From Planctomycetota bacterium (GTDB lineage: Bacteria; Planctomycetota; Phycisphaerae; WQYP01), in assembly GCA_021847065.1 (NCBI GenBank), contig JAJZVR010000001.1:1-41402 (forward strand): 41,402 bases of DNA. The letters run 5' to 3'. A model generated the notes under the pieces. That model was not told the origin of the DNA. It saw nothing but the letters and a program-made list of their open reading frames with translations, and did no database searches. The translations under genes and the position numbers were made by a program. Below are positions 10,323 to 41,402 of the stretch, in pieces. Within the stretch, counting starts at the first letter, position 1, and every line of letters starts with the position of its first letter.

Positions 10323-10409
10323 GGAGAGATGTCCGAGTGGCTTAAGGAGCACGATTGGAAGTCGTGTGTGGGGGTAACCTCACCGTGGGTTCGAATCCCA
10401 CTCTCTCCG
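10323..10409 (+). tRNA. tRNA-Ser (anticodon GGA), class II with long variable arm
   Basis: Folded by hand. Acceptor GGAGAGA/TCTCTCC, D-arm TCC-GAGTGGCTTAA-GGA, anticodon stem CACGA/TCGTG with loop TTGGAAG (GGA). An 18-nt variable arm, T-arm GTGGG-TTCGAAT-CCCAC, discriminator G. No encoded CCA. Confidence 0.93.
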
Positions 10410-11921
10410 CTTTAAGGAGTTTTGGTCGAGTTCACCGGCCAGAAGCGCCGCGTCGCAGGACGCGGCGCTTTGCTGACGGGCAAGACGGCCAATAGCGACA
10501 ACGGTTTTCCACGCCCCGCGTGGCTCCCAATCCACTTCCCGATGCGCCACTTTTGGGTTCGAGACGATTTTTCTGAAAAAATCACACTGTTCTGTTAGGT
10601 TGTCGGAATCCGCGAGGAAACCCGCTGTTTTGGCGTCTTTTACGACAGTGATGACCGGTTCGAGAGCACTGGAGCGGTCACGCTCCAGTGTGGCGAGTCG
10701 CTCGCCGCAGTCGTGCTTTTTGAGCACGAGGGTATTCTTGGTTGTCCGGTATTCCGCCAGCGACAGTCCTTCGTCGAGGTAGGCAGCCATGAGCCGGTCG
10801 AGTTTGCGGTCATAGTCGACCAGTTCGTCACGGAGTGACTGGAGTTGCTCTGTAGCAGCGGCGGTATCGGTTGCCTGTTCGCGTTCGAGTTCTCCGAGCA
10901 TCCAGTCGGCCCAGTCGGCCGGCAGGGAAATTTTGTGAAGTATACCGACGATCTGTTTAGTGATGGCTTCTTCGCGGACATACGGTTGCGAACAGGCAGT
11001 CCACTTGGTGCAGCGTAGATAGTTGTGACCCTTTTGGGTCTCCGTAGTGATGGTTCGTCCGCACTCGCCGCAGCGAAACAATCCTCGATAGAGGTAAGGT
11101 TTGAGAGTGCGGCCTTTGGGTTTTGAGCGACGGCGCATGGCCGCCTGGGCGGCATCGAAAAGTTCTTTCGTAATGATCGGCTCATGGCTGCCGGGGTAGA
11201 GTTCTCCATGATAGCGGATGATACCGAAGTAAATCGGGTTCTGAAGCAGGTACTGGTAATTGGAGACCGAGAGCAACCGACCACGCCGGGCGGTCAGCCC
11301 CAGGGCGTTGACCGCGTCATGCACTTGGGCGAAGGTGTAGCGTCCGGTGGCGTAGAGTTCGAACGCTTTGCGGATATACGGTGAACGCTCCGGATCGGGC
11401 ACGATGGTCTTAGTGACGCGGTCGTTGAGGTAGCCCAAGGGAGCGAACTGCGGCCAGACGCCTCGCTTGAGTTTCTGACGGATACCGCGATTGATATTTT
11501 CCGAAAGACTATCGACATAATACTTGCTCTGGCCGAAGGCGATGGAGAGCATGAATTTGCCCTGCGGCGTGGCGTCGAAACGGTACGTCGGCGACTTGAT
11601 GTCCCGGATTCCACCGGTGTCCACCAGGTAGATGATGCGGCCACCGTCGAGTGAATTGCGGGCCAGCCGGTCGGGTGCCCAGACCAGTAACCCTGAGGCT
11701 TCGCCCGATTCCAAGCGAGCCAACATATCATTGAACACGGGGCGACCGGGTGCCTTGGCGGTACGGCTTTCGACGAACGTTTCGACAACGGGAAGATGTT
11801 CCTTGGCCGCCAGTTCGCGCAGCTCGGCAAGCTGGTCGCCGATGCTCCGGGCCTGGCGATCTTCGCTCTCGGTCGATTTACGTGCATAGATGAAATACGT
11901 GATGGGTGCGTCGGTGTTCAT
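10380..11921 (-). CDS. large serine recombinase (resolvase domain + recombinase domain + zinc ribbon + coiled coil)
   Basis: N-terminal serine-recombinase catalytic region YFIYARKSTESEDRQARSIGDQ...LLVWAPDRLARN. Zinc ribbon FRCGECGRTITTETQKGHNYLRCTKW. Long helical C-terminus. ATG 11921 is preceded by GAGGG. The last ~55 codons are encoded by IR1-L plus the antisense of the tRNA T-arm (stop at 10380-10382). Confidence 0.9.
   Translation of the reverse strand: MNTDAPITYFIYARKSTESEDRQARSIGDQLAELRELAAKEHLPVVETFVESRTAKAPGRPVFNDMLARLESGEASGLLVWAPDRLARNSLDGGRIIYLVDTGGIRDIKSPTYRFDATPQGKFMLSIAFGQSKYYVDSLSENINRGIRQKLKRGVWPQFAPLGYLNDRVTKTIVPDPERSPYIRKAFELYATGRYTFAQVHDAVNALGLTARRGRLLSVSNYQYLLQNPIYFGIIRYHGELYPGSHEPIITKELFDAAQAAMRRRSKPKGRTLKPYLYRGLFRCGECGRTITTETQKGHNYLRCTKWTACSQPYVREEAITKQIVGILHKISLPADWADWMLGELEREQATDTAAATEQLQSLRDELVDYDRKLDRLMAAYLDEGLSLAEYRTTKNTLVLKKHDCGERLATLERDRSSALEPVITVVKDAKTAGFLADSDNLTEQCDFFRKIVSNPKVAHREVDWEPRGAWKTVVAIGRLARQQSAASCDAALLAGELDQNSLKRREWDSNPR
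10405..10548. repeat. IR1-L: left copy of a perfect 144-bp inverted repeat
   Basis: Base-by-base comparison shows 10405-10548 is the exact reverse complement of 12721-12864. It starts with CTCCGC (tRNA-Ser 3' end) and contains the 12-bp GC hairpin. Confidence 0.95.
10443..10470 (+). terminator. GC-rich hairpin downstream of tRNA-Ser (weak intrinsic terminator candidate), part of IR1
   Basis: AAGCGCCGCGTC-GCAG-GACGCGGCGCTT forms a perfect 12-bp stem, followed only by TGCTG, so the U-tract is poor. An identical copy lies in IR1-R (about 12799-12826). Confidence 0.4.
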
Positions 11922-12036
11922 ATATGGTTACCCTCTTGGCGGCGGTCAATGACCGCCAGTGTGATTATGGGGATAGCATAGCGCGCAGGGAGCGGCGCGC
12001 CAAGAGAAAAATGTGTCGAATTGCCAACGATGTATT

Positions 12037-12576
12037 TTATGTCGAGGTTGCGTTGCTCTTCGGAGCGAATTGTTCCGCCGTAGCCAGAAAAGATTTCATG
12101 TTCTCCGGACTTGCCTTCCATACTCGATTGTCGATATCCATAACTCCAATGTAATCCAATTTTTGCCAGTCGAAATCGAGCGCTACCGACATGACCAATT
12201 CTTCTTTTTCACCGAGCATTCTTGGAAGCTCTGGGGAAAACGTATAGTTGGGCCTATTTAAATGATTCGTTACCGTCTGATTGGATAGTCCAGCCTGATC
12301 CGGTTCAGAGCTACTCCAGCACCATGCTTTGATATGGTAGGGTCGTCGGGACTTGTTGAGTGCTATAATCTGAGCCAATTGTTGGTGACCATTCCTCGTC
12401 GGATTTACCTTTACGTCTACATTCGGATTCTCTGCCTCACATTGCTCTTGCTGAATCCGGTACGAATCTCTGGAGAGCTTGACGGTATAAATTGCGGCAA
12501 TCGTCGCAATCATACCGGAAATTGCGGACACTGCCGCGCAAGCTACTGTAATCATTTCTGCCATCTGAGCATCCAT
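12037..12576 (-). CDS. hypothetical membrane-anchored protein (single N-terminal TM helix)
   Basis: ORF upstream of and co-directional with the recombinase. Hydrophobic MITVACAAVSAISGMIATIAAIYTV is followed by a soluble ~150-aa region with no motif I recognise. Start is ambiguous (TTG 12600, ATG 12576/12564/12555). Confidence 0.5.
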   Translation of the reverse strand: MDAQMAEMITVACAAVSAISGMIATIAAIYTVKLSRDSYRIQQEQCEAENPNVDVKVNPTRNGHQQLAQIIALNKSRRPYHIKAWCWSSSEPDQAGLSNQTVTNHLNRPNYTFSPELPRMLGEKEELVMSVALDFDWQKLDYIGVMDIDNRVWKASPENMKSFLATAEQFAPKSNATST

Positions 12577-12720
12577 GACGAATAGTATAGGTGAAGGCAA
12601 TAAAACTGGAAACCATCATTTGATACCCGGCGATATGAATATCATGCCTGCAGCACCAGGAGGATATATATAGTATGTATTATTTATCATATGTGAATAA
12701 TTTATTATTGTTTTCAAATA

Positions 12721-12864
12721 GGCGCATCGGGAAGTGGATTGGGAGCCACGCGGGGCGTGGAAAACCGTTGTCGCTATTGGCCGTCTTGCCCGTCAGCAAA
12801 GCGCCGCGTCCTGCGACGCGGCGCTTCTGGCCGGTGAACTCGACCAAAACTCCTTAAAGCGGAG
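12721..12864. repeat. IR1-R: right copy of the perfect 144-bp inverted repeat
   Basis: Exact reverse complement of 10405-10548. This explains ORF-track 12734..12925, which repeats the recombinase tail DWEPRGAWKTVVAIGRLARQQSAASCDAALLAGELDQNSLKR. Confidence 0.95.
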
Positions 12865-12937
12865 TGCTTTGGTCAAGCTTCGAACGGCCGTCGCTCAGGA
12901 GCATCATACACCAAAATGTCCTTGAGAATTTCTGGCA

Positions 12938-13140
12938 TTTAACCCTTCCCCTCACCCTTCCCCCTGGGGGGAAGGGCACCATTTCCGTTTAGTCCTTGTG
13001 TTACAACGGTTTATCGTATTTTTCGAGCGTGGCGCCTTGTCAGAAAGCGGCCTCTCTCCCTCACGGGAGAGAGGCCTTCGGCTCGCTCACGCTCGCCTCG
13101 GCGGCTCACGCCGTCCGCAGGTGGGGTGGGGGCAGAAAAA
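12938..13140. repeat. IR2-L: left copy of a ~203-bp hairpin-rich inverted repeat
   Basis: Reverse complement of 39175-39378 with about 3 substitutions and 1 indel by eye. Contains palindromes at 12955-12976 (CCCTTCCCCC..GGGGGAAGGG) and 13049-13076 (GGCCTCTCTCCC-TCAC-GGGAGAGAGGCC). Confidence 0.9.
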
Positions 13141-13200
13141 TATTTGCATATCTACTCATATATATGCACATGGTAATGTGCGCGCTGATAATGTGCATTA

Positions 13201-14538
13201 TCAGCGTTTCTTTTTGTGTTGCGTGCGTGGACGCAGTTTTCTTTTCTTCGGAATGGTTTGTTTCGGTTCTCCCATCCATCGTCGAATACGAGATTCAATA
13301 ACTTCACGCTTCGTGGAGAAGCGTTCGCGTGAGCGAGCGATGACTATGTGTCGGCGCCCGCTGCGGATCATGAGTGGTCGCATCGTGCTGACACGAAACG
13401 GGGTTTCGTACCCGTAGATCGTCAGCGGCTTGATGAGAGCCTGGTAGTTGGCAAGGCTGGTGAAAGCCGATGATTGGATGTCTTCACCGAATTGCCGGGC
13501 CAGTAAGGTTGCGTCGGATTCCCCCACACGGAAACTCATGATCGTACCGACATTGCCAAAGACCGCATTGGTGATCTCCGGTCGTGTCTGGCTGGTGTAC
13601 TGGGATGCCAGCGTCAGGGACAGGCCGTACTTTCTTGCTTCCGAGAGAATGGATGCAAACGAGTCGGTAGCAAAGTTGTGGTATTCATCCACGTAGAGGT
13701 GGAACGGCGTCCGTTGTGCCGGTGGGATGTCGGCTCGACTCAAGGCTGCAAGCTGGAACTGGGTGACCAAGAGTGATCCCAACAGGTTGGCCTTATCTTC
13801 CCCGACCTTGCCCTTGGCGAGGTTCGCGATGAGGATACGTGAGCGGTCCATCAGAAACCGGATATCAATGCTACTTGCGACTTGGCCAAGTATGTGACGG
13901 ATGGGTGGCGCCATCACCAATTGCCCGATCTTGTTCTGCACCGGGGCGATGACTTCCGTTAAAAATCGCCGGTCATAGCCGGCGAATTCTCCTGTCCAAA
14001 AGGCCCGTATCATCGGGTCCCTGACTTGCCGGACGACCCAGGTACGGTAGACCGGATCAATGAGCATCCGCTGCACGCCGAGAATCGTTACGTTCTCGCA
14101 TTCCAGCAGTGCGGCAATGCTGGTATACAGAATGTATTCCATCCGTGGCCCCCAGGAATCCCGCCAGATACTTTTCAGTGCGCCAACGATGGATGAAGCG
14201 ATGAGGTGGGGCACGTGGTTGGTGCCGGGACGCAACACGTTGAGACCGACCGGAAACTCATGGTCGGCGGGGTTGAGATATGCAACATGGTCGGTACGGT
14301 GCGGAGGGATGCAATCGAGAATGTCCTCGGCCAGATCACCGTGGGGATCGATCAGACCGACCCCATGACCTTTTTCAATGTCTTGGATGATCAGGTTGCG
14401 GATGAGGGTGGACTTGCCGGTACCGGTCTGACCGATGATGAAAAGGTGCTGCGCTCGGGCATCGGGTGATATACCGAAAAGCTGCTGGCCGCCCCAGACG
14501 TCGCGTTCGCCAATGTATGAAAGAGCATCGTCCCACAT
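13201..14538 (-). CDS. TraD/VirD4/HerA-like P-loop ATPase (soluble coupling-protein-like), copy 1
   Basis: Walker A FIIGQTGTGKSTL, Walker B FHLYVDEYHNF, followed by LSEARKYGLSLTLASQ (a TraG-D_C-like region). Basic C-terminal tail KKRKLRPRTQHKKKR. No TM segment. Confidence 0.85.
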   Translation of the reverse strand: MWDDALSYIGERDVWGGQQLFGISPDARAQHLFIIGQTGTGKSTLIRNLIIQDIEKGHGVGLIDPHGDLAEDILDCIPPHRTDHVAYLNPADHEFPVGLNVLRPGTNHVPHLIASSIVGALKSIWRDSWGPRMEYILYTSIAALLECENVTILGVQRMLIDPVYRTWVVRQVRDPMIRAFWTGEFAGYDRRFLTEVIAPVQNKIGQLVMAPPIRHILGQVASSIDIRFLMDRSRILIANLAKGKVGEDKANLLGSLLVTQFQLAALSRADIPPAQRTPFHLYVDEYHNFATDSFASILSEARKYGLSLTLASQYTSQTRPEITNAVFGNVGTIMSFRVGESDATLLARQFGEDIQSSAFTSLANYQALIKPLTIYGYETPFRVSTMRPLMIRSGRRHIVIARSRERFSTKREVIESRIRRWMGEPKQTIPKKRKLRPRTQHKKKR

Positions 14539-16224: not shown

Positions 16225-16550
16225 ATGACCACATTGATGTGGGTGCAACGCCTCCGATGGAGGACTGCGCCCAAGTCGGTACTGCCGACTACTTCGAACG
16301 TGCTCGTCGAGAGTGCCGAGTCTACATCAGCCTTCTACGCCGTGCCCTCGGCCCGGAGCCGACAGGTGCAACACTCCAGATCAAATCAAATCCCCACGAT
16401 TTCGGCACCTATCTGTCCGTGGTCTGTTACTACGATGTCTGTAATGAAGACGCACGCAACTACGCCTTCCGCTGCGAATCGGAAGGGCCGGACGAGTGGG
16501 ATGCTATTGCCCGACGAGAACTCAATCAGAAAGGAGTACACCATGAGTGA
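16221..16550 (+). CDS. hypothetical protein, mobile-element associated
   Basis: ATG 16221 is preceded by AAAGGAA. Begins MNDHIDVGATPPMEDCAQVGTADYFERARRECRVYISLLRR...HDFGTYLSVVCYYD. Overlaps the primase start by 8 nt. Confidence 0.65.
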   Translation: MNDHIDVGATPPMEDCAQVGTADYFERARRECRVYISLLRRALGPEPTGATLQIKSNPHDFGTYLSVVCYYDVCNEDARNYAFRCESEGPDEWDAIARRELNQKGVHHE

Positions 16551-17637
16551 TTGGATCAATTTTCGGGACGTCCGGAAGAATCTGTCATTTGAAGCAGTGT
16601 TGACGCACTACGGCGTTACGATCAAGAAACAGGCTGGCAACCGTCACGTCGGTCGCTGTCCCTTGCCGATGCACATTGGTAAGGGAAAAACCCCCTCATT
16701 TTCAGCAAAACTCGATATCGGGGTATTTCAGTGTTTCAGTTGCAAAGCGCATGGCACCGTCCTTCACTTTGCAGCACTTATGGAAGGCTTGAATCCGGAT
16801 GATCCACAGGACCTCCGGACGGTGGCATTGAAACTGCGGGATGTGTTTCTTACTACAGCAACGGCATCACCGAAGAAAAAGCTGGTGAGAAAGGAATCAT
16901 CTACATCGCCTCCTGCCGGAACCACTAGATCAAACCTTCCGGTACTGGTTAATCCACCCTTGGACTTCGAACTCAAGGACTTGGATGACGACCATCCGTA
17001 CCTAAAGGGCCGGGGATTTAATCCGCAGACCATCCGCCACTTCGGACTGGGTGTCTGTAGCCGTGGCCTCATGAAAGGACGAGTAGTGATTCCCCTGCAC
17101 AATGCCACTGGACGCTTGGTTGGATACGCTGGTCGTGTCGTTGATGACACTACGATCAGCGATGACAATCCACGATACCGTTTGCCTGGCCGCCGTGAGC
17201 GAGAAGGCAGGATTATCGAGTTCAAAAAGTCCCTCCTCCTGTACAACCACCACCGCCTGAAGCAGCCGGTCAACGACCTCATCGTCGTTGAGGGGTTTAC
17301 CTCGGTCCGGTGGCTGACTCAGTGGGGATATTCCTCGGTAGTGGCGATGTTCGGGTCGGATTGCTCCGAAGAGCAGGCTCGCCTGATCGTCCACGCGACG
17401 GCTCCGGACGGCCGGGTGTGGATATTCCCGGACACCGATGCCGCCGGTGAAAAAGGTGTGATGGTGATGCTTTCTCGCATATCACCATATCGCTGGACAC
17501 GGTGGATACAGACCCAGCAAGAACAGCCCACCGATTGCACGCCTGCCGATCTGGAAAAACTTCTGCCCGGCCTTGGTACCGAACGAAAGGAGGTGCTGCA
17601 TGACAACGGCAGTTTGTGGGCGGATACACCGGTATGA
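16543..17637 (+). CDS. DNA primase (CHC2 zinc finger + Toprim, DnaG/TraC-like)
   Basis: ATG 16543 is preceded by AAGGAG. CHC2 finger CPLPMHIGKGKTPSFSAKLDIGVFQCFSCKAHG. Toprim residues LIVVEGFTSV and IFPDTDAAGEKG. The ORF-track N-terminal extension from 16225 overlaps the upstream gene and is discounted. Confidence 0.88.
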   Translation: MSDWINFRDVRKNLSFEAVLTHYGVTIKKQAGNRHVGRCPLPMHIGKGKTPSFSAKLDIGVFQCFSCKAHGTVLHFAALMEGLNPDDPQDLRTVALKLRDVFLTTATASPKKKLVRKESSTSPPAGTTRSNLPVLVNPPLDFELKDLDDDHPYLKGRGFNPQTIRHFGLGVCSRGLMKGRVVIPLHNATGRLVGYAGRVVDDTTISDDNPRYRLPGRREREGRIIEFKKSLLLYNHHRLKQPVNDLIVVEGFTSVRWLTQWGYSSVVAMFGSDCSEEQARLIVHATAPDGRVWIFPDTDAAGEKGVMVMLSRISPYRWTRWIQTQQEQPTDCTPADLEKLLPGLGTERKEVLHDNGSLWADTPV

Positions 17638-19951: not shown

Positions 19952-22747
19952 ATGGCAAAGGGACAGACGTGGTGGCAGACGATGTTTGAAGCGCGGTACG
20001 TGGGAAGACAACAGAAACAGTCAGCAGAATATCTGCATTGGACAGCGCCGCCGCGTGATAAGGGAGTTCGATCTGGACAAATTGCTCTCACAATAGCTGT
20101 CACCGCATCACTGGGGCTAACACATGTGTCCAATGCCGCCCCACAATACTCTGTAACCGATCTAGGAACACTAAATGGATATTCGCAGAGCTACGCTGCA
20201 GGCGTTAATGATTATGGTCAGGTAGTTGGCGAATCCGAAAACAGCGTCAATTCTTCCCACGCTTTTCTTTACAGCAACGGTAGTATAACTGACCTTGGAG
20301 TGTTACCTGGCTATGCCACAAGCTATGCAACAGGCATAAATAATGCAGGCCAAGTTGTTGGTTGGGATAATCCCGCCAACTTCGAGGAGAACAGTCTTAC
20401 GGCTGCATATTTTTCAGCTAATTCCGTCACTGAAATGTGCTTTGGCGGCCCTTCAGCGGGGATGTCTCAAGCCTTTATCTACCATAACGGATCTGTGTCA
20501 AGTTTGGGAAATCTGCCGGGAGGTACGGGCAGCGTGGCTTTCAGTATCAACAAAAGTGGCGCTGTTGCTGGCGTTGCAGGTACGGCATCCACTTATTCGA
20601 CTGATGCTTATCTTTACAATGGCGGCACTATGACTAATTTGGGTACTCCAATTGGTTATCCATACACGAGCTATGCGGTTGCCAATAATAACGGTGAAGT
20701 TGCCGGATCGGCTATAGGATTTAGTTACGACAGTAATGGAGTTCCGACAGGAACGAATAAACATTCATTTGTTTATAATACTGGATCAATAACTGACATG
20801 GGAACTTTATCAAACTCTTCCTCAAGCTACGCCACTGGTATTAATGACAGTGGTAAGGTGGTTGGCTACGCGGACGGAATAAACTCGCATGCGTTCCTTT
20901 ACAGTAATGGCGATATGATTGGGATTGGAATCCCCGCTGGAGAAAGCTGGAGCCAAGCCAACGGCATAAACAATGAAAATCAAATCGTCGGAGTAGCTGG
21001 CAATAGTAGCGGCACTACCCATGCTTTCCTATACCAGAATGGTTCAACAGTGGACCTCAATACTCTAACGAGCGGTTCAGGTTGGACGCTACAAGAGGCG
21101 ACCGCTATAAACGCGAACGGACAAATAGTTGGCAGTGGGATAAATCCGAGAGGCCAAACACACGCGTTTCTGTTGACGCCGACGATACCAACAGTGCAGG
21201 CAACAACGACGCCGTCGGCACCGGAAACAGCACACCCCGTTTCCGGTCAATTGGTAGTCTTTGATGCGAACCCGAAAGATGCATCCTACGGGACATTTGT
21301 CGCAGCAAGCAATACGCCTGGTACAATCGGATACGTCGATCCCAATAACCCGACTGATATTCTTACGCACGGCTACGCTAGTAGCGACGCACTTTGGGCG
21401 GGCTCAGCCGGGTTTGCGGAGGCCCTTGCGAAGCAACAACCGACTACCAATATTGTGGCGTGGAACTGGTCCGGTGAAGCCAAGTGGGATGGCAACTGGG
21501 TCGATTGGATTCCGGACTTAACTGCCGCTGATCTAGCAACTCAAAATCAGGGCCAAGACCTTGCATCATCCTTACTGTCTCTCCTAGGCACGAATTACAG
21601 TGGTTCCCTGCATTTTGTTGGTCACAGCTTGGGAACAATGGTCAACGCGAAGGCCATCGACACGATCACCCAGGCGGACCATTCAGTGACCGTCCAGGAT
21701 ACTCTTTTTGATGATGGAGAGTTAGCCAATCCTATCACCACAGCCATTACGTCCATAGACCAACTTCGCCTTTATGTCGCCAGATTCAGTTCCATGCCGC
21801 AAGACACATCTAATATTTCCATCGACAATTACCTCTCTGCGTTTGGCGGCGTGCATCAGGGGGCTGTTAATGTTGTCTTACAGCAAGCCATAGCAGAGTT
21901 TCCGGATATTGTTGCAATGCATGGTTATCCGGTGCAATGGTACCAGAGCACCATGGGGCTTAACAATGTAACGACACCGCAGCTTCAGGGTATGGGCTTT
22001 CAGTTTGACGGCGCGCAGGCGCAACCCGGCGTGTATCCATTCAATTTTCTTCAGACGGTTGCGCCTGGCGATCGGTATTCCCTCACGCCGATGACATACG
22101 ATGAGGCCTCGCACTACGGCGGGATAAAGACGATTCCGTCCGAGTCGTATAATTATCTTACGTCTGTGACGATCGCCGACATCACGGGCGCAGCTCAAGT
22201 TGCTGGTGGCGCGTTGGTCAACGTGGTTAATTTCCTTCCACCGGATTCATTAAATAATGACACCCCAGCCTTAGGCCCGCAGTTTATTCTCCCAAAGTTC
22301 GCAAGCACTTCGGAAGGTCCGCTTACCGCCAACACAGCAGCCGTAGCCGCTACGAGTAACAACACCACGGCTGCTATGTCGTACGTATTTGTCCCAATCA
22401 AGGTTCCAACTGGCGCGCAGATGATGACCCTCGACTACGTTATGCATGGACTGAGTGCGACAGACCTTCTGAGTGTTGGGATTAACGATACGCCCTTGTT
22501 CGCGTTAGAAAGCCAATTTGTAACGCCGGACAGTATAACCAACACAGGATATCTGGATGTGTCGCAATGGGCAGGCACGGATGTTCAGTTATTCATCGGG
22601 CTCATTCCTGGCGATAACCAGAACTTGGGTGGCACTATTACGGTCGATAATATAGCGTTCGAAGCGGTTCCTGAGCCAAGCACTTACCTGCTTATGCTTG
22701 GCACATTAGCGATTCTAGCTGCAAGACGACGAAGAGTATTAGATTGA
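19952..22747 (+). CDS. PEP-CTERM exoprotein: HAF-family repeats + alpha/beta-hydrolase (lipase-like) domain
   Basis: About 7 HAF repeats (SHAFLYSNGSITDLGVLPG, SQAFIYHNGSVSSLGNLPG, THAFLYQNGSTVDL, THAFLL...). Nucleophile elbow HFVGHSLGT (Ser codon 21626-21628) with upstream ILTHGY. C-terminal VPEPSTYLLMLGTLAILAARRRR. Confidence 0.9.
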   Translation: MAKGQTWWQTMFEARYVGRQQKQSAEYLHWTAPPRDKGVRSGQIALTIAVTASLGLTHVSNAAPQYSVTDLGTLNGYSQSYAAGVNDYGQVVGESENSVNSSHAFLYSNGSITDLGVLPGYATSYATGINNAGQVVGWDNPANFEENSLTAAYFSANSVTEMCFGGPSAGMSQAFIYHNGSVSSLGNLPGGTGSVAFSINKSGAVAGVAGTASTYSTDAYLYNGGTMTNLGTPIGYPYTSYAVANNNGEVAGSAIGFSYDSNGVPTGTNKHSFVYNTGSITDMGTLSNSSSSYATGINDSGKVVGYADGINSHAFLYSNGDMIGIGIPAGESWSQANGINNENQIVGVAGNSSGTTHAFLYQNGSTVDLNTLTSGSGWTLQEATAINANGQIVGSGINPRGQTHAFLLTPTIPTVQATTTPSAPETAHPVSGQLVVFDANPKDASYGTFVAASNTPGTIGYVDPNNPTDILTHGYASSDALWAGSAGFAEALAKQQPTTNIVAWNWSGEAKWDGNWVDWIPDLTAADLATQNQGQDLASSLLSLLGTNYSGSLHFVGHSLGTMVNAKAIDTITQADHSVTVQDTLFDDGELANPITTAITSIDQLRLYVARFSSMPQDTSNISIDNYLSAFGGVHQGAVNVVLQQAIAEFPDIVAMHGYPVQWYQSTMGLNNVTTPQLQGMGFQFDGAQAQPGVYPFNFLQTVAPGDRYSLTPMTYDEASHYGGIKTIPSESYNYLTSVTIADITGAAQVAGGALVNVVNFLPPDSLNNDTPALGPQFILPKFASTSEGPLTANTAAVAATSNNTTAAMSYVFVPIKVPTGAQMMTLDYVMHGLSATDLLSVGINDTPLFALESQFVTPDSITNTGYLDVSQWAGTDVQLFIGLIPGDNQNLGGTITVDNIAFEAVPEPSTYLLMLGTLAILAARRRRVLD

Positions 22748-23196: not shown

Positions 23197-24189
23197 TCAT
23201 CCCAGAAGAGAAGATTTATTTCCTCGACTCTCCACCGCCGCATCCCTTTCCGTCTGCCGCCGATACCGCCCCAGGTTGCGTACTGTCACGTCATGTCCAC
23301 TGCCGGCAATAGCGTTCATAAAATCAGCTGGCCGCATCCAAATCGGCCCCAGCGGGTCGACAAGTATCTCCGGCATCGTGGTCAACCACACCATCGTCTT
23401 GATGGGCGGGTCAACTAATAACAATCGTTCAGCGGCGTTGTTCCGGCGCTCCGCCGTTGGAAAGATCGCCAGCACCCGGAAGGGGTAATCCGCAAATTGA
23501 TCACGGCTGCCGCCCCTTGATTCGGCAAAGCCGCCACTGCGGTAATGGGTGCGGTAGCAAGCGACCCGGTCAGCCAACACCGCCTGACTCTCCGTTCTCC
23601 GATCCACTTCAATGAAGCAATGGTGCTCGGCAATGCCGTCAGCATCCTTTTCATGCAGACATAGATACCCGTCAGGTTTGACGATGACCGAAGCACCGCC
23701 ATAGCCGCTAGTGTGTGGCTTGTGGGTGCGGAACTGTGACAGTAGCGGCCACGTAGTCGAGGTAATGACGCGAATATTTGTACGTTTGGATAGAGCGGCC
23801 AACAGCGCCGCTTTGACGCCGACAACCGCAAGTTCGTGCCGTAGCGTCAAGCGGCTAACGTGCGAACGCACGTCGAATTGGGCATCGGAGAGCACCGGGT
23901 AGCCGTCAAGACGGCCCTGTCGCTTCAGGAGGTGGAATCCCTTCTTGGTCAACAGCAGTGTCAAGGGTTCATGCGCCTGGCGGGCCCGGTCACGGATCAA
24001 TCCCGCTCGCCGGAGTTTCTGTAGCCGCTTCTTGGCCGTTTCAATATTGCTTTCAAAATAGAGGGTGGCGGCATGGCTGACAGTCATTGTCCGGCTTTCA
24101 TACAGCCCGCGCAATACGGCAAAGTCCCGCTCTTGCGGGATGATGCGGCGTTCAGTTGTCCCGTCCATGTGCATCAAATAGTCTACCAC
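23197..24189 (-). CDS. replication-relaxation family protein (putative relaxase-like DNA-processing protein)
   Basis: N-terminal winged-helix pattern typical of Replic_Relax proteins (QERDFAVLRGLYESRTMTVSHAATLYFESNIETAKKRLQKLRRAGLI). Located directly downstream of a coupling-protein-like ATPase. Confidence 0.78.
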   Translation of the reverse strand: MVDYLMHMDGTTERRIIPQERDFAVLRGLYESRTMTVSHAATLYFESNIETAKKRLQKLRRAGLIRDRARQAHEPLTLLLTKKGFHLLKRQGRLDGYPVLSDAQFDVRSHVSRLTLRHELAVVGVKAALLAALSKRTNIRVITSTTWPLLSQFRTHKPHTSGYGGASVIVKPDGYLCLHEKDADGIAEHHCFIEVDRRTESQAVLADRVACYRTHYRSGGFAESRGGSRDQFADYPFRVLAIFPTAERRNNAAERLLLVDPPIKTMVWLTTMPEILVDPLGPIWMRPADFMNAIAGSGHDVTVRNLGRYRRQTERDAAVESRGNKSSLLG

Positions 24190-25074: not shown

Positions 25075-27291
25075 TTACTCCTTGATTCTCCGCACGATAT
25101 TCGTCGGCTCGCCGGTGCCAGCCGGGCCGAGGTACGTGGTCTCAAATTGTTTCCGGCGTGCCGCCAGGCGGCGGTCGGCTTCGACCACCGGCAGAGCGAA
25201 GGGAAGCTTTTTGCGCCGTACGTTCGTCCAGGCCCGTGCTCCCTTGGCGGATATCTTCGCCGGTGCAACCGTCGGCGTCGTGATCGGCACTGGCGGGTCG
25301 ATGCCGATACGCACCACCGCATGGCGGTCTGGTTGGGCCGACAGAAACTGGGAATACCGGAACAACTGCTCCTCTGGCGACCGAAACTGCGGCGGTAGTG
25401 CCTCCTTGCCCACCATGGGCACGAGCATGGGCGCACTGGTCACCCCTTCCGAGGTGGACTGTGACGTGGTGTGCCCGCCGCCGTATGTTTCCGCGTTACC
25501 CGTCGTGGAGCTTTCGCTCGTGGTGCGACTCTCGCCGCGTTGCAACGACACTGAATCGCTTTCACCGTCACTGGCCGATTCGCTCATACCGCTCGAGTGC
25601 GATTCACTGCGAGCATGTGCATCTTGCTCCGCCCGGGCGGAACTTGTCGAGCGGGTGGCTGCCACACCGGTCGATTCGGATTCACTGTCGCTTGTACCGG
25701 TCGCTGCCGATGTCCCCATACTGCGATTCAGCGTCGGAAACTCGCCTTCTTCATCACGGTACGCGGCATCGAACGTGTGCGTCGGTTCCGCTCCGACGAT
25801 TTTCAGCATGGCCTCGGAATCGCCGGCAAGCTGACGGTTCTCGCTCGTGCTATCGCTCCGCTGGTGGGCATGGCCGGCGGCACGGCTCACCGTGGTTCCC
25901 GCGGCTTCACTCTGGGCGGTGCTTTCGGCATGGCTCTGACTGTGCCCGTGAGACAGTCCTGCGTTCGTGCCGATTGAGCGATTCCGCTGGCTGCTGTGCG
26001 ACACGCCCACCGATTCGGTCTGGCCGTGACTGACGCCGGAGGTAGTACCGCTGGACTCCGTGGTGCTCCAGTTCTCGGTGTCGGCAACGCCTTGGCTCGT
26101 GCTGTGACTGGTGCTGTCGTGGTATTCCAGCCTGTAGCCGAGCACTTTTGTAGTGTAATGCTGGTGCTTTACCTGATCCACGTCCACATTGTTGCGGAAC
26201 AGCCAGGGGGTCATGAGGTCCAGGTCGGCCGGGTGGCCGGTCTGAAATAGCACCTGGGTGGTGGTATTGCTGATGGCGGCGTTGAGGACTTGGCGACCGC
26301 CCGGCCCCAGGTCAAGGAGTTGCTGCGGACTTTGATGGGCCATGATGAACCCAACATTCATGCCCCGCAGTTGTGCCAGTGATTGGGCGATGACCGGCGA
26401 GATATATTCCTGAAACTCGTCGATGGCAACGATGAAGCGCCGGTGCATTCGGTCGCCTGAACGTTTACCCCGGTGCTTGGCGGCACTCCAGACTTCATTG
26501 ACCAAGAGACTGCCGACCACAGCGGCGTCTTCTTCGGCGATTTTTGATCCTTCGGTAGACAGCGCCGCCAGGACGATGTGACCTTGTGCCAAGGCCGAGC
26601 GCATATCAAGCGACACGTCACTCTGGCTGAAGGCAAGGCGTAATGCTTGCGTGGAAAGAAATCGTCCCAGCCGATTCATGGTTGATTCCAGTTCTTCCTG
26701 GAACGCCGCCTCGGTCAGTTTACTTGCGACGATCCACACACTCTTGGCCATGGCATCTTCCACCCGGAGCGCCAACGCGGAACGGATTTCCCGACTGCGG
26801 ATGATGTCGAGCGCTTCCAACAGCGTGCACTGGGAACTATACAGCGTTGCCAGGAGCGTCGTGAGCCACTTTGTCAGACGCGGTGTGTCGGTGGCATCAG
26901 CTTGCTTCCAGCCGTGCAAGATGGCGCGGACGGCGGCATGAATCAAGGGTGCCGGATCATCTTCCGGCTGGGGCCGCAGGATATGGAGCGAGCAAATCCA
27001 GTCGCTACGGAGGTCAAGGGGAATCACCGGGAAATTGTCAAAACCGCTGGCCGCCATCCAGGAGACGAGCGACTCATACAGTTCGGCATGAGGATCAATG
27101 AGGAGTAATCCTTCCCGTGTCCAGGGCCAGCGGCGGATCAACTCCCGCAGCGTGTGCTCCAGCAGTTTTGACTTGCCGCTGCCGCTTTTGCCGCAGATAT
27201 ATGTGTGACGGTTGAGTTGGTCGAGCGGTAGGCCGACGGGATTGCCACTGGTGTGATATCCAAGAACAATGTCATTAGAAATACTGTTCAC
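25075..27291 (-). CDS. TraD/VirD4-like P-loop ATPase, copy 2, with ~230-aa low-complexity insert
   Basis: Walker A YICGKSGSGKSKLLE. Walker B RRFIVAIDEFQEY. MNVGFIMAHQSPQQL. Residues ~391-620 are Ser/Thr/Gly/His/Glu-rich low complexity. Structured basic C-terminal tail. Confidence 0.88.
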   Translation of the reverse strand: MNSISNDIVLGYHTSGNPVGLPLDQLNRHTYICGKSGSGKSKLLEHTLRELIRRWPWTREGLLLIDPHAELYESLVSWMAASGFDNFPVIPLDLRSDWICSLHILRPQPEDDPAPLIHAAVRAILHGWKQADATDTPRLTKWLTTLLATLYSSQCTLLEALDIIRSREIRSALALRVEDAMAKSVWIVASKLTEAAFQEELESTMNRLGRFLSTQALRLAFSQSDVSLDMRSALAQGHIVLAALSTEGSKIAEEDAAVVGSLLVNEVWSAAKHRGKRSGDRMHRRFIVAIDEFQEYISPVIAQSLAQLRGMNVGFIMAHQSPQQLLDLGPGGRQVLNAAISNTTTQVLFQTGHPADLDLMTPWLFRNNVDVDQVKHQHYTTKVLGYRLEYHDSTSHSTSQGVADTENWSTTESSGTTSGVSHGQTESVGVSHSSQRNRSIGTNAGLSHGHSQSHAESTAQSEAAGTTVSRAAGHAHQRSDSTSENRQLAGDSEAMLKIVGAEPTHTFDAAYRDEEGEFPTLNRSMGTSAATGTSDSESESTGVAATRSTSSARAEQDAHARSESHSSGMSESASDGESDSVSLQRGESRTTSESSTTGNAETYGGGHTTSQSTSEGVTSAPMLVPMVGKEALPPQFRSPEEQLFRYSQFLSAQPDRHAVVRIGIDPPVPITTPTVAPAKISAKGARAWTNVRRKKLPFALPVVEADRRLAARRKQFETTYLGPAGTGEPTNIVRRIKE

Positions 27292-38855: not shown

Positions 38856-39174
38856 TGTTTTATCCCTTTCTTCTCATGCACCACATTCGATGACCCACGA
38901 TACCGAGAATTGGTGGTGCGATTACTCTCAATCCGTTCACTGTACGATCTGAACGGTACGAACATTCTGTTTGCCTGGCACAATTGAATAGTAATTATCA
39001 CGACCGATAACTACTGTGTCAATGTATCTGGGTGTAGATTATTCGATTTTTCTTTTCTTCTTAACCAGTTTTGTTCGCTTCCGCCGCCTGCGCGGTGGGG
39101 TGGTCGTGAGACTACCCTTGTTGTTTTTGTTTTTCATGTCCATTCCCTAAAGGACATCTTAAGGACATTTCCTG

Positions 39175-39378
39175 TTTTTCTGCCCCCACCCTACCTGCGG
39201 ACGGCGTGAGCCGCCGAGGCGAGCGTGAGCGAGCCGAAGGCCTCTCTCCCGTGAGGGAGAGAGGGCCGCTTTCTGACGAGGCGCCACGCTCGAAAAATAC
39301 GATAAACCGTTGTAACACAAGGACTAAACGGAAATGGTGCCCTTCCCCCCTGGGGGAAGGGTGAGGGGAAGGGTTAAA
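39175..39378. repeat. IR2-R: right copy of the ~203-bp hairpin-rich inverted repeat
   Basis: Reverse complement of 12938-13140. The differences seen are the palindrome-centre base, T/C at the GCGCCTTG/GCGCCTCG site, one extra C before CTCTCTCCC, and G/A in GGTGGGG/GGTAGGG. Confidence 0.9.
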
Positions 39379-39486
39379 AAGCGGTATAATCGGGGTTGTC
39401 TTTTATAAATAATTGGATTGCTGAGAGCAGACGTTCAGGTGTTCTAACATCGTTCTGCTCACACCGTTAAAAACAATTGTGCGTTC

Positions 39487-39513
39487 AAAAACCCTTGTCT
39501 AACAAGGGTTTTT
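39487..39513. terminator. bidirectional intrinsic terminator-like hairpin
   Basis: AAAAACCCTTG-TCTAA-CAAGGGTTTTT is symmetric, with A/T runs on both sides. It lies about 330 nt downstream of the rsmE stop. Confidence 0.55.
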
Positions 39514-39839
39514 GCGTTTCGATCTGTCTGCACCAATAGTCGCTGTCCCAAAACTGTCCCAATCCGCCGCTGGCGGTCATCGCCCCGATACCGTCGCCCC
39601 GTGGAGTGTTTGTGCACCGAAATGCGGACCGCACCTCACCATCACAATTAATTAAACGTCAGTTCGGGATAAGGAATTGAAATAAAAGGCCTCCTGGCAC
39701 GTAGAAACTATTGGTGGTGTGTGTGAAGCATACCTGTTTTTTACGGCAAGGAGGCCAAACATGGATAGCGACATTGCCTTTGAATAGAGGGGGCCTGGCA
39801 GGATTTGCCACCACCAGTTGGGCATTAAGAATGAACCTG

Positions 39840-40604
39840 TCATTGCGAGGGGGTGCTACCTGCCAATCGTAACGCCGCCTGGGCGATTGCCGTGGCGGCG
39901 GCGGCGGCCGTTTCAATGCGCAAAATGTTATTTCCCAGACGCACGGGGGCGGCTACCTGCCTGAGCATTTCCTGTTCCGGCTGACTCCATCCACCCTCCG
40001 GCCCAATCATGATCGTAATAACCGAGCTTTCCGCGCGTGGCACTTGTGCGGTGTTTTGCCGTTGCCACTCGATGAGGCGTTGAAACAAATCATCCGTGGC
40101 ATCAACATGTGTCCATATAAGTGTTCCCAGGCCCGCGTTCGCCAGAAGTTGCCGGGGCGTTTGTGGCTCTTTAATTGCCAGTATGCGGGACCTTCCGCAC
40201 TGCCTGGCGGATTCAATGGCCAGACGCACCCACTTCTCCATTTTTCCGGCTTCAGCACTGGGGTGTACCACGCTGTAGCGGCAGTCCAGCCAGATCAGGG
40301 CAGTGGCGCCGAGTTGGCTGATCTGCTCCAGCAACTGATGCGAACGATCCGCTTTAGGTACGGCGGTGGCTATGTTCAGGCTGTACGGCGGGGCGGGATC
40401 AACGGTAATCGGGCCGGATAATTCATAATGGGCGTGCTTTTTTTCCATGATTATGCGGGCCGGGGCTGATTGCCCGGCACCGTCAAAAATAATTACGCTT
40501 TGACCATTATCCAGGCGTAACACATCACGGGCGTGATGCGCTTGATCATCCGGCAGTTCGCCCGCAGCGACCAGGGGTGAAACATAAAACCGCGGCATGC
40601 TCAT
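39840..40604 (-). CDS. rsmE: 16S rRNA (uracil1498-N3)-methyltransferase
   Basis: N-terminal MPRFYVSP motif. HHARDVLRLDNGQSVIIFDGAG. C-terminal SPOUT knot IGPEGGWSQPEQE...VRLGNNILRIETAA. Confidence 0.88.
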   Translation of the reverse strand: MSMPRFYVSPLVAAGELPDDQAHHARDVLRLDNGQSVIIFDGAGQSAPARIIMEKKHAHYELSGPITVDPAPPYSLNIATAVPKADRSHQLLEQISQLGATALIWLDCRYSVVHPSAEAGKMEKWVRLAIESARQCGRSRILAIKEPQTPRQLLANAGLGTLIWTHVDATDDLFQRLIEWQRQNTAQVPRAESSVITIMIGPEGGWSQPEQEMLRQVAAPVRLGNNILRIETAAAAATAIAQAALRLAGSTPSQ

Positions 40605-40613
40605 AAGCGTGAC

Positions 40614-41354
40614 TCATTGAAAAACCACTTTGGGTACGGTTGTGGATTTATTGATTCGGCTCAGGATAAGTAAATCCGCATCGGAATTGACGCCCGATGC
40701 ACCAGTCCATTTAAGCATGGAATTCGTGATTCGAAAACCGCGTTCCACCGCGACGGGCGGAAAATCGGCGGCACTGTTTCTCTGCGGATCGCTGATCCAT
40801 ACCACGCCCCGCGGTGCCAGAAGATGATCAATGGCATCAAGAAGAATTGGATGCAGCCGCCGTTCATAAAGCACATCAGATGCGATAATCCAATCAAATG
40901 TTTCGTTGATTGGTTCGCGCCAATCCATGTGGCGGGCGTGAACCAGATGGGCGGGAATGTTGTTGCAATTGGCATTAAAGGCGGCAAAATCGACCGCCTC
41001 GGGATCATAATCGGTGAACGTAACATGCCAGCCGCGCATGGTGGCCGCGATACCGGCAATGCCCAGGCCACATCCCAGTTCAATAGCCCGCCCCGGCTCT
41101 GTGCCAGGGTGGTGCGGCAAGCTTGGCGGTGAATCCTGGTCGTTTAAAATATGTTCCGCCAACATGAGGCTGCTGGGCCAGATCACTGGCCAGTAAGGCA
41201 GGTAGTTATCTTTTTTATACCGTGCTTCCACGGTTGGATCATCCAGCAGCGAATCGGGATCAGCGGGGGCGAATATTTCCAGCCGGTGCGCACCAGCCAT
41301 CAATTCATGAAGTCGGATCGGATAACGGGATTGCAATGGCGGGCGCTGCGTCAT
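40614..41354 (-). CDS. class I SAM-dependent methyltransferase (Methyltransf_16 / PrmA-like)
   Basis: YWPVIWPSSLMLAEHI, SAM motif I AIELGCGLGIAGIAA, acidic loop VTFTDYDPEAV, and IIASDVLYE. Its position upstream of rsmE parallels prmA-rsmE synteny in other bacteria. Confidence 0.82.
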   Translation of the reverse strand: MTQRPPLQSRYPIRLHELMAGAHRLEIFAPADPDSLLDDPTVEARYKKDNYLPYWPVIWPSSLMLAEHILNDQDSPPSLPHHPGTEPGRAIELGCGLGIAGIAATMRGWHVTFTDYDPEAVDFAAFNANCNNIPAHLVHARHMDWREPINETFDWIIASDVLYERRLHPILLDAIDHLLAPRGVVWISDPQRNSAADFPPVAVERGFRITNSMLKWTGASGVNSDADLLILSRINKSTTVPKVVFQ

Positions 41355-41402
41355 CGGTGCTTTTCCGATCCAGATATTACTGGTGCTGTGGCGGGGGAAG
41401 TC

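Follow-up and report, generated by a model that had tools for sequence, protein, structure and literature searches.

Two adjacent pairs of inverted repeats in a tRNA-Ser island of a Phycisphaerae bacterium: a probable inverted duplication of the attP-bearing repeat in serine-integrase elements

Serine integrases are the textbook example of one-site, one-way integration machines and are important tools for genome engineering. The elements that carry them, including phiC31, Bxb1, A118/LI, SPbeta, Tn4451 (TnpX) and SCCmec (Ccr), have integrases with Resolvase, Recombinase and zinc-ribbon domains, short attachment (att) sites with a common core and a pseudo-palindromic attP in which the ZD motif lies 5 bp further out. 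We analyzed a complete NCBI contig of 41,402 bp (the window) from a metagenome-assembled genome (MAG) of the Phycisphaerae, which contains a large serine recombinase (LSR) gene beside a tRNA-Ser gene. The LSR element of the window and its relatives share these traits with the described elements, but they target the 3' end of a tRNA gene, their integrase open reading frame (ORF) spans attP and has its C-terminus altered on integration, and they appear to keep a second complete, inverted attP inside a repeat of several hundred bp, which gives two adjacent pairs of long inverted repeats. To our knowledge, a duplicated and inverted attP is known in none of the elements named above.

The closest parallels to the repeat arrangement come from unrelated genomes. 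The yeast 2-micron plasmid has Flp/FRT within 599-bp perfect inverted repeats, and the class E genome of herpes simplex virus (HSV) is arranged as ab-UL-b'a'c'-US-ca; segment inversion is the hallmark of both. By analogy, the family described here would resemble these genomes in having a recombination or cleavage site in a long repeat that is present twice, inverted, between two unique segments, and either genome opened at one copy would have two adjacent inverted pairs and a short direct terminal repeat. The family differs in using a serine integrase rather than a tyrosine recombinase or a terminase and in being opened by chromosomal integration. It also shows no segment inversion among integrated copies, and its minimal members lack replication genes.

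The 144-bp inverted repeat that flanks the LSR gene in the window is probably one half of an attP-bearing repeat of about 420 bp, which the element carries twice in inverted orientation, one copy having been split by integration while the other is intact. The repeat, R (about 420 bp in the window), would consist of Ra, the P half-site, the core and the P' half-site with Rb, and would hold both the attP of the element and the 3' end of the LSR gene. In the free element, for which we infer a circular form, two inverted copies of R would divide an LSR module (U1) from a cargo module (U2). The LSR would recombine one copy of R with the 3' end of tRNA-Ser, leaving Rb (10405-10548) in attL and Ra (39173-39378) at the opposite end, and the other copy would stay whole inside the island (12721-13143) as an inverted, unrecombined attP. 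The integrated product would then read tRNA-Ser, Rb, LSR module, internal repeat (the reverse complement of Rb, rcRb, then the core and rcRa), cargo, Ra and chromosomal flank, and integration would swap the native, P-arm-encoded tail of the LSR for residues encoded antisense to the tRNA.

The only tRNA in the window is tRNA-Ser(GGA), which ARAGORN placed at 10323-10410 on the plus strand and which would be the integration target and the B arm of attB. A repeat search of the window detected the first inverted pair (IR1) at 10405-10553 and 12716-12864 (149 nt, 99% identity), and the raw sequence bore out the first-pass annotation, which had described 10405-10548 and 12721-12864 as exact reverse complements: the perfect center spans 144 nt without a mismatch. 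A perfect repeat of this length cannot have arisen by chance within 41 kb. As that annotation also had it, the left arm begins with CTCCGC, the final 6 nt of tRNA-Ser, since the tRNA gene ends at 10410; the arm carries C-terminal codons of the LSR (48 codons, where about 45 had been given); each arm holds a 12-bp GC hairpin (10443-10470 and 12799-12826, respectively); and the 513-amino-acid (aa) LSR, a membrane-anchored ORF (ORF187) and an AT-rich patch all lie between the arms. We also agree that no textbook pattern, neither the attL and attR of LSRs nor the direct repeats of tyrosine integrases, accounts for a 144-bp inverted repeat. The 3' end of tRNA-Ser meets Rb at CTCCGC, as is expected of an attL, and the final 6-8 nt of the tRNA (CTCTCCGC) are the core that it has in common with the attP of the element. 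The left arm, Rb, would be the P' side of the split repeat and would form attL with the tRNA, and the right arm, rcRb, would be the P' half of the intact internal repeat R' (12721-13143). Repeat arms, the cargo module and the border scar described below are given without strand.

A scan of the whole window revealed a second inverted pair (IR2), which was missed in the first reading. Its arms (12938-13143 and 39173-39378, about 206 nt, 98-99% identity) bracket 26 kb of conjugation-type cargo, and the near arm starts 73 bp past the right arm of IR1. The near arm, rcRa, is the outer part of R' and contains two GC-rich hairpins; the far arm is Ra, which in relatives continues to the P half-site, the core and the flank and so makes up attR. 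Because core genes flank the entire region (ppk on the left, rsmE and a gene for a PrmA-like methyltransferase on the right), the mobile unit is an island of about 29 kb at tRNA-Ser and not a cassette of 2.46 kb.

The architecture of the window is conserved among relatives of its LSR. Of 8,000 scored candidates, at least 6,812 were LSR homologues with E≤1e-20. Most of them end in '..RRxxDSNPR..', the antisense of the tRNA acceptor and T-arm, and because the ORFs end in this tail, an integrase gene that lies at the edge of the element and reads across attL is a trait of the family. Eighty loci from contigs of one genome per species, with LSRs 47-58% identical to the query at the amino acid level, were compared, and the window brought the set to 81. 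The hosts are mostly Patescibacteria, with others from the Planctomycetota, Gammaproteobacteria, Bdellovibrionales, Elusimicrobiota, Verrucomicrobiota, Omnitrophota and Bacteroidota. In 67 of the 81 loci, the window included, the 3' end of the LSR gene holds one arm of an inverted repeat whose second arm lies upstream of the gene; the arms have a median length of 120 nt (range, 54-198) and a median identity of 99.2% (100% in 26 loci, below 95% in 18). The loci that lack the repeat are mostly without flanking DNA. The first-pass annotation had allowed that relatives might carry no comparable unit, but 66 of them do. The target was the 3' end of tRNA-Ser, irrespective of the isoacceptor, in 30 of the 40 loci scanned, and tRNA-Gln in two. 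Since a viral collection gave only five weak relatives of the LSR, the family is not typically phage-borne. Elements range in size from cassettes of 3.4 kb in Patescibacteria to the island of about 29 kb in the window.

About 25 loci with enough upstream sequence also had a second pair (160-380 nt) with its near arm directly adjoining the upstream IR1-type arm, and 19 of these loci were measured. The near arms overlap by 4-11 bp (e.g., TTGGCGG) in 17 of the 19, and in these the same core recurs as a direct repeat on either side of the whole element, next to the tRNA and at the distal end (attR). The layout of these loci is tRNA, Rb, LSR, the internal repeat (rcRb, core, rcRa), cargo and Ra. 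These results bear on a suggestion of the first-pass annotation that the 2.46-kb unit is an insertion sequence- or transposon-like element, which would have 144-bp terminal inverted repeats, use the LSR as its transposase and target the 3' end of a tRNA. Long inverted repeats do bracket the LSR, and one end of the unit is the tRNA 3' end. The other end, however, has no junction with target DNA and runs on into the attP core, the P half-site and the second pair, and the direct-repeat core encloses the LSR and cargo modules together. The cassette was never seen alone, the window has no extra copies of it, and a metagenome scan with a 30-nt arm pattern matched one contig only, which is another two-module relative. 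We therefore regard a transposon of 2.46 kb as highly improbable.

Repeats of such identity could also reflect an artefact of assembly or the scar of a single rearrangement. In favor of this, the window comes from a MAG, breaks at or close to the repeats are common in related contigs, and the far border of the island does hold a deletion scar. Against this, the assemblies of the 66 relatives are independent, were made with several different assemblers and contain the same architecture; the repeat recurs, at 97.3% identity, in a sister element (L091); and the arms must be physically separate copies because they have diverged to below 95% identity in 18 loci. An artefactual second copy is thus excluded, and a rearrangement scar does not explain an architecture conserved across phyla, the actual scar being at the far border of the island. 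Taken together, this explanation is scarcely credible. The identity of the arms is probably kept by gene conversion or homologous exchange, or the insertion is recent. Contigs of MAGs often stop 20-300 bp upstream of the LSR gene or right after it, at the repeats (L010, L013, L015, L017, L019, L028, L031, L036, L037 and others).

The segment between IR1 and IR2 has the geometry of an attP half-site. The core GCGGAG and the P half-site of the internal inverted attP occupy 12859-12937 (plus strand), so that the crossover core is the outer end of each IR1 arm and not inside the arm; one arm ends in attL and the other in attP. The motif TTCGAA lies 9 nt from the end of the repeat on the tRNA side of the window and 14 nt from it on the internal side. 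In relatives, the distance from the core to a TTCGAA-like motif is 11 nt on the tRNA side in 41 loci, where the motif corresponds to the T-loop, and 16 nt on the internal side in 37. The internal spacing exceeds the tRNA spacing by exactly 5 in 38 of the 45 scorable loci, the window among them. The ZD-binding motif of LSRs lies 5 bp further from the crossover in attP than in attB half-sites (PMC3783163), and because the TTCGAA spacing obeys this shift, the 73-bp spacer at 12865-12937 was assigned as the P half-site. The half-site and the terminal part of the right arm make up an imperfect palindrome (..GGTGAACTCGACCAAAA..GCGG..TTTGGTCAAGCTTCGAAC..). The plus strand of the right arm encodes the same C-terminal stretch of the LSR, followed by an alternative tail, SALVKLRTAVAQEHHTPKCP (ORF 12734-12925), and a homologous tail, RALVELRTAIAQEYHTPKCP, occurs in the LSR protein P0123.

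Two tail states were detected in nearly identical elements. The loci L090 and L001, which derive from different samples of a single study, share 3083 nt at 99.9% identity and cease to match directly after AAAGCGGAGAG; the shared stretch breaks exactly after GCGGAGAG, which shows the same element joined to a tRNA in one and to a P arm in the other. After the break, L001 continues with a 3' fragment of tRNA-Ser(GCT), and L090 with a P arm and Ra, giving its LSR the tail RALVELRTAIAQEYHTPKCP. Positions 2938-3258 of L090 are collinear with 12721-13041 of the window at 92% identity, and rcRb of the window is likewise collinear with the DNA downstream of the LSR gene in L090. The window LSR (P0130 in the protein collection, a member of the P0001 cluster) belongs to a cluster at ≥90% identity with tails that derive from tRNA-Ser(GGA), tRNA-Ser(GCT), another tRNA and the P arm, and seven other clusters at ≥90% also mix the tRNA and P-arm classes. 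The alternative tail is conserved as the peptide '..LLEVRTFFAENP..'. A gene that crosses attP and has the C-terminus of its protein altered by integration is also found in mycobacteriophages BPs and Brujita, where attP lies within the repressor gene and integration by a tyrosine integrase leads to truncation; in the present family it is the gene of the LSR itself that is affected, and a spare 3' end with attP is kept upstream.

An unsplit state was represented by L082 and L083, in which the LSR module lies between two attP-type flanks with TTCGAA at 13-14 nt and without a tRNA. The contig of the unsplit element (41.8 kb) has a ParB gene and a gene for a coupling protein that is 57% identical to that of the window. 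The two attP-type copies of L082 (1-103 and 2366-2470) share only the 98-nt Rb part and have diverged in their outer parts. The P half-sites of L082 are unlike (CTACGAGACGACCTTCGAATG and TGGTTAGATGAAGTTCGAACC), and the two copies possibly have different target specificities, or one of them may be dead.

Among other close relatives, the sister element L091 has the same LSR module, with a 149-nt repeat, and is inserted at a tRNA-Ser(GGA) gene in an unrelated chromosomal context. At the syntenic ppk–tRNA-Ser site, a related species carries a related LSR (L092). The upstream arm is present in the L001/L090 lineage, where L102 has it 2.3 kb upstream, and the LSR module can thus hold extra genes.

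Several observations weigh against a free element with two inverted copies of the attP-bearing repeat. The LSR reads into the tRNA in all of the approximately 46 integrated relatives with a scorable junction, with none flipped in these consensus assemblies, and two equivalent attP copies would be expected to give both orientations of the LSR. A circle with two copies of R was not recovered among the contigs of the relatives (that of L082 is seen from one end), and L084 ends within repeats at both ends and is ambiguous. Three loci (L003, L073 and L077) have complete flanks yet no repeat, and the duplication of the attP repeat is therefore not obligatory. In the window itself attR is missing, with neither the 73-bp P arm nor the core after 39378, and the far junction misfits the proposed structure unless a secondary deletion occurred.

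The orientation of the LSR also bears on the proposal in the first-pass annotation that the cassette is invertible. An active switch would flip the LSR cassette between the arms, by the LSR or by homologous recombination, toggling the tail or the expression of the LSR, and this would be the purpose of the repeat. Such an arrangement has a likeness to the Hin, Gin and Cin segments, in which a serine recombinase gene lies between inverted repeats; these, however, are small serine invertases with sites of 26-34 bp and mixed orientations, whereas the family has a large serine recombinase, arms of 120-200 nt that include half of attP and one orientation in its integrated copies. Inversion is structurally possible: the LSR ORF is complete in either orientation, the IR1 arms are perfectly identical, and the alternative tail is conserved and present in LSRs ≥90% identical to ones with a tRNA-derived tail. 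An explanation at the level of DNA is also available for the conservation of the tail, whose codons overlap the P half-site, and the contigs with the alternative tail are either unsplit (L082 and L083) or ambiguous (L084 and L090) rather than flipped integrated copies. Recombination between two identical attP-type sites is not known for LSRs, nor is the pairing of attL with attP that the ends of the arms would demand (PMC3783163). No flipped integrated isomer was found among the 80 genomes, and with about 46 of 46 integrated copies in one orientation, flipping is not at equilibrium. Routine flip-flop of the cassette is thus not supported, and a switch as the purpose of the repeat is unlikely. 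Either the two attP copies are used unequally or flipping is rare. The protein P0174, which has an alternative tail, was rejected as evidence of flipping since it comes from two tandem LSRs at tRNA-Gln without inverted repeats and is uninformative on this point. Production of attP by folding of a single-stranded transfer form, by analogy with the CTX phage, was also rejected, as cutting of the stem would leave hairpin-capped chromosome ends instead of the duplex layout observed.

The LSR gene (10380-11921, minus strand) encodes a protein of 513 aa whose sequence places it in the large serine recombinase family, with predicted N-terminal resolvase (PF00239, 2e-20), recombinase (PF07508, 2e-15) and zinc-ribbon (Zn_ribbon_recom, PF13408, 6e-08) domains. 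The residues YxRxST..Q and the downstream D and R residues are invariant in an alignment of 25 LSR sequences. The best NCBIfam matches were CcrB and XisF; both scored far under the cut-offs, and the LSR is thus not an equivalog of either. Residues ~458-505 are encoded by Rb, which also includes a hairpin that codes for PRGAW and the GC hairpin at 10443-10470, and the final eight codons (REWDSNPR) and the stop codon lie antisense within tRNA-Ser. Transcription of the gene runs outward from the element, across attL.

Upstream of the LSR gene, ORF187 (12037-12600, minus strand) has an N-terminal hydrophobic helix according to its translation and represents the cargo of the LSR module. It had no match in Pfam, NCBIfam or PADLOC and is probably cotranscribed with the LSR gene; a homologue of 193 aa is found at the same place in L091. 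The AT-rich patch (about 12601-12720, minus strand) is just inside the right arm. It has promoter-like hexamers, with minus-strand sites at 12697-12670 and 12612-12584 that are not enriched over shuffled sequences, and is likely the promoter for ORF187 and the LSR gene.

The Rb arm was 97-98% identical between the window and L001, L091 and L092, compared to 80-88% for the remainder of the LSR gene. A GC-rich hairpin occurs 35-50 nt from the core in almost all members (about 30 related loci), and its sequence varies with compensatory changes. Near the inner end of the arm, the conserved PRGAW motif is encoded by another hairpin, CCACGCGGxGCGTGG, which has no T-run. Because the arms are more conserved than the gene and hold two positionally conserved hairpins, one with compensatory changes, the excess identity suggests that Rb is under constraint at the DNA level, or else exchange between elements. 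The first-pass annotation read the GC hairpin as a possible terminator that would insulate the cassette; considered as an intrinsic terminator, it has no T-run and was not called terminator-like in the scan.

The cargo module (U2, 13144-39172, 26 kb) was annotated from profile matches. It encodes a TraD/VirD4-like coupling protein (13201-14538), a DnaG-type primase (16225-17637), a Replic_Relax protein (23197-24189) and a VirB4/HerA-like ATPase (25075-27291), together with NYN, SDR, PEP-CTERM and other proteins. A DUF3466/PEP-CTERM protein of 931 aa is encoded at 19952-22747, and a DUF3466 protein also is present in the cargo of L082 (11206-12416), a distantly related element. Tycheposons and other tRNA-targeting islands resemble this family in integrating site-specifically at tRNA genes and in having variable cargo, but they differ in having mainly tyrosine recombinases, a tRNA restored by a carried fragment and direct-repeat flanks. 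A minority of tycheposons and cryptic elements carry an LSR, and no internal inverted attP is described (tycheposon study).

The right border of the island differs from that of its relatives. Following Ra is a scar (39379-39839) with unrelated sequence and a 66-nt remnant (39766-39831) of a SASA-domain gene. Two loci, L093 and L094, are 95.6% identical to 39842-41402 of the window, and there a SASA-domain gene of 965 aa follows rsmE. The attR of the window was probably lost by deletion, as judged from this comparison. With attR lost and a deletion at the right border, precise excision of the island is improbable, and no candidate for a recombination directionality factor for excision was identified. 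The attL, the LSR gene and the internal attP look intact in sequence. The flank after Ra begins with AAAGCGG, which is 7 nt of the arm/core junction in inverted orientation. No displaced 3' fragment of tRNA-Ser, as is found at the end of tyrosine-type islands, was detected in the window at ≤3 mismatches. An empty ppk–tRNA-Ser–rsmE site was sought in relatives, where rsmE is not beside ppk; the neighbor of rsmE in the relatives is the SASA-domain gene, which is mostly deleted in the window, and the original flank of attB is therefore not reconstructable.

Other features of the family were seen in the relatives. A small gene for an XRE-type helix-turn-helix (HTH) protein (65-73 aa) is located at the LSR-proximal end of the cargo in Patescibacteria, just inside the near arm of the second pair, and is transcribed away from the LSR gene (L016, L024, L025, L038, L048, L062, L074, L081 and others); the window has no counterpart. 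The other cargo in Patescibacteria is highly variable and includes methyltransferases, ATPases, RadC-like and nucleotidyltransferase-like proteins. ARAGORN predicted a 'tRNA-Ser' with the unusual anticodon ACT in L004 (11686-11773), L024 (11670-11757) and L025 (4857-4942); the predictions in L004 and L024 are divergent, with the occupied tRNA-Ser about 100 nt away. Such predictions could represent pseudo-tRNAs or second att-like sites. In L097/L098 (10001-21008, Taylorbacteria), two LSRs of the family (472 and 538 aa) have the same orientation and end at tRNA-Gln; they are separated by a restriction-modification system and a Rep gene. Since long inverted repeats are absent, this looks like a tandem or decayed arrangement.

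The spare attP may serve in autoregulation of the LSR from an upstream site, as a reserve attP that captures other tRNA-Ser sites or in isomerization. In Patescibacteria the spare attP lies 40-150 bp upstream of the LSR start, beside the divergent XRE-type HTH gene, and an operator role fits this position. A broader reading, to which we give somewhat less than an even chance, is that the tRNA-Ser LSR family, with thousands of members in many phyla, has an inverted duplication of attP and the integrase 3' end in which the attP is retained live, the tail of the integrase is switched and the spare attP has a selected function. Candidates for that function would be autoregulation of the integrase, capture of a second tRNA-Ser site (with cointegration and mobilization or rearrangement of the chromosome) and isomerization or exchange of modules.

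We found no published description of this layout in the full-text literature, subscription journals being outside its coverage, and the family of tRNA-Ser-targeting serine-integrase elements with an inverted attP duplication is apparently undescribed so far. A second, intact and inverted attP that is routine in a huge natural family would be a new type of architecture among mobile elements and raises the question of how the LSR avoids or exploits a resident attP beside attL. It also points to an inherent switching of the integrase C-terminus as the element passes between its free and integrated states. Contigs appear to break systematically beside tRNA-Ser genes on account of these elements; their repeats account for the frequent breaks of MAG contigs beside integrases of the family and give a precise rule for delimiting the islands. 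Finally, the family offers many natural attP/attB pairs aimed at the universally conserved acceptor and T-arm of tRNA-Ser.

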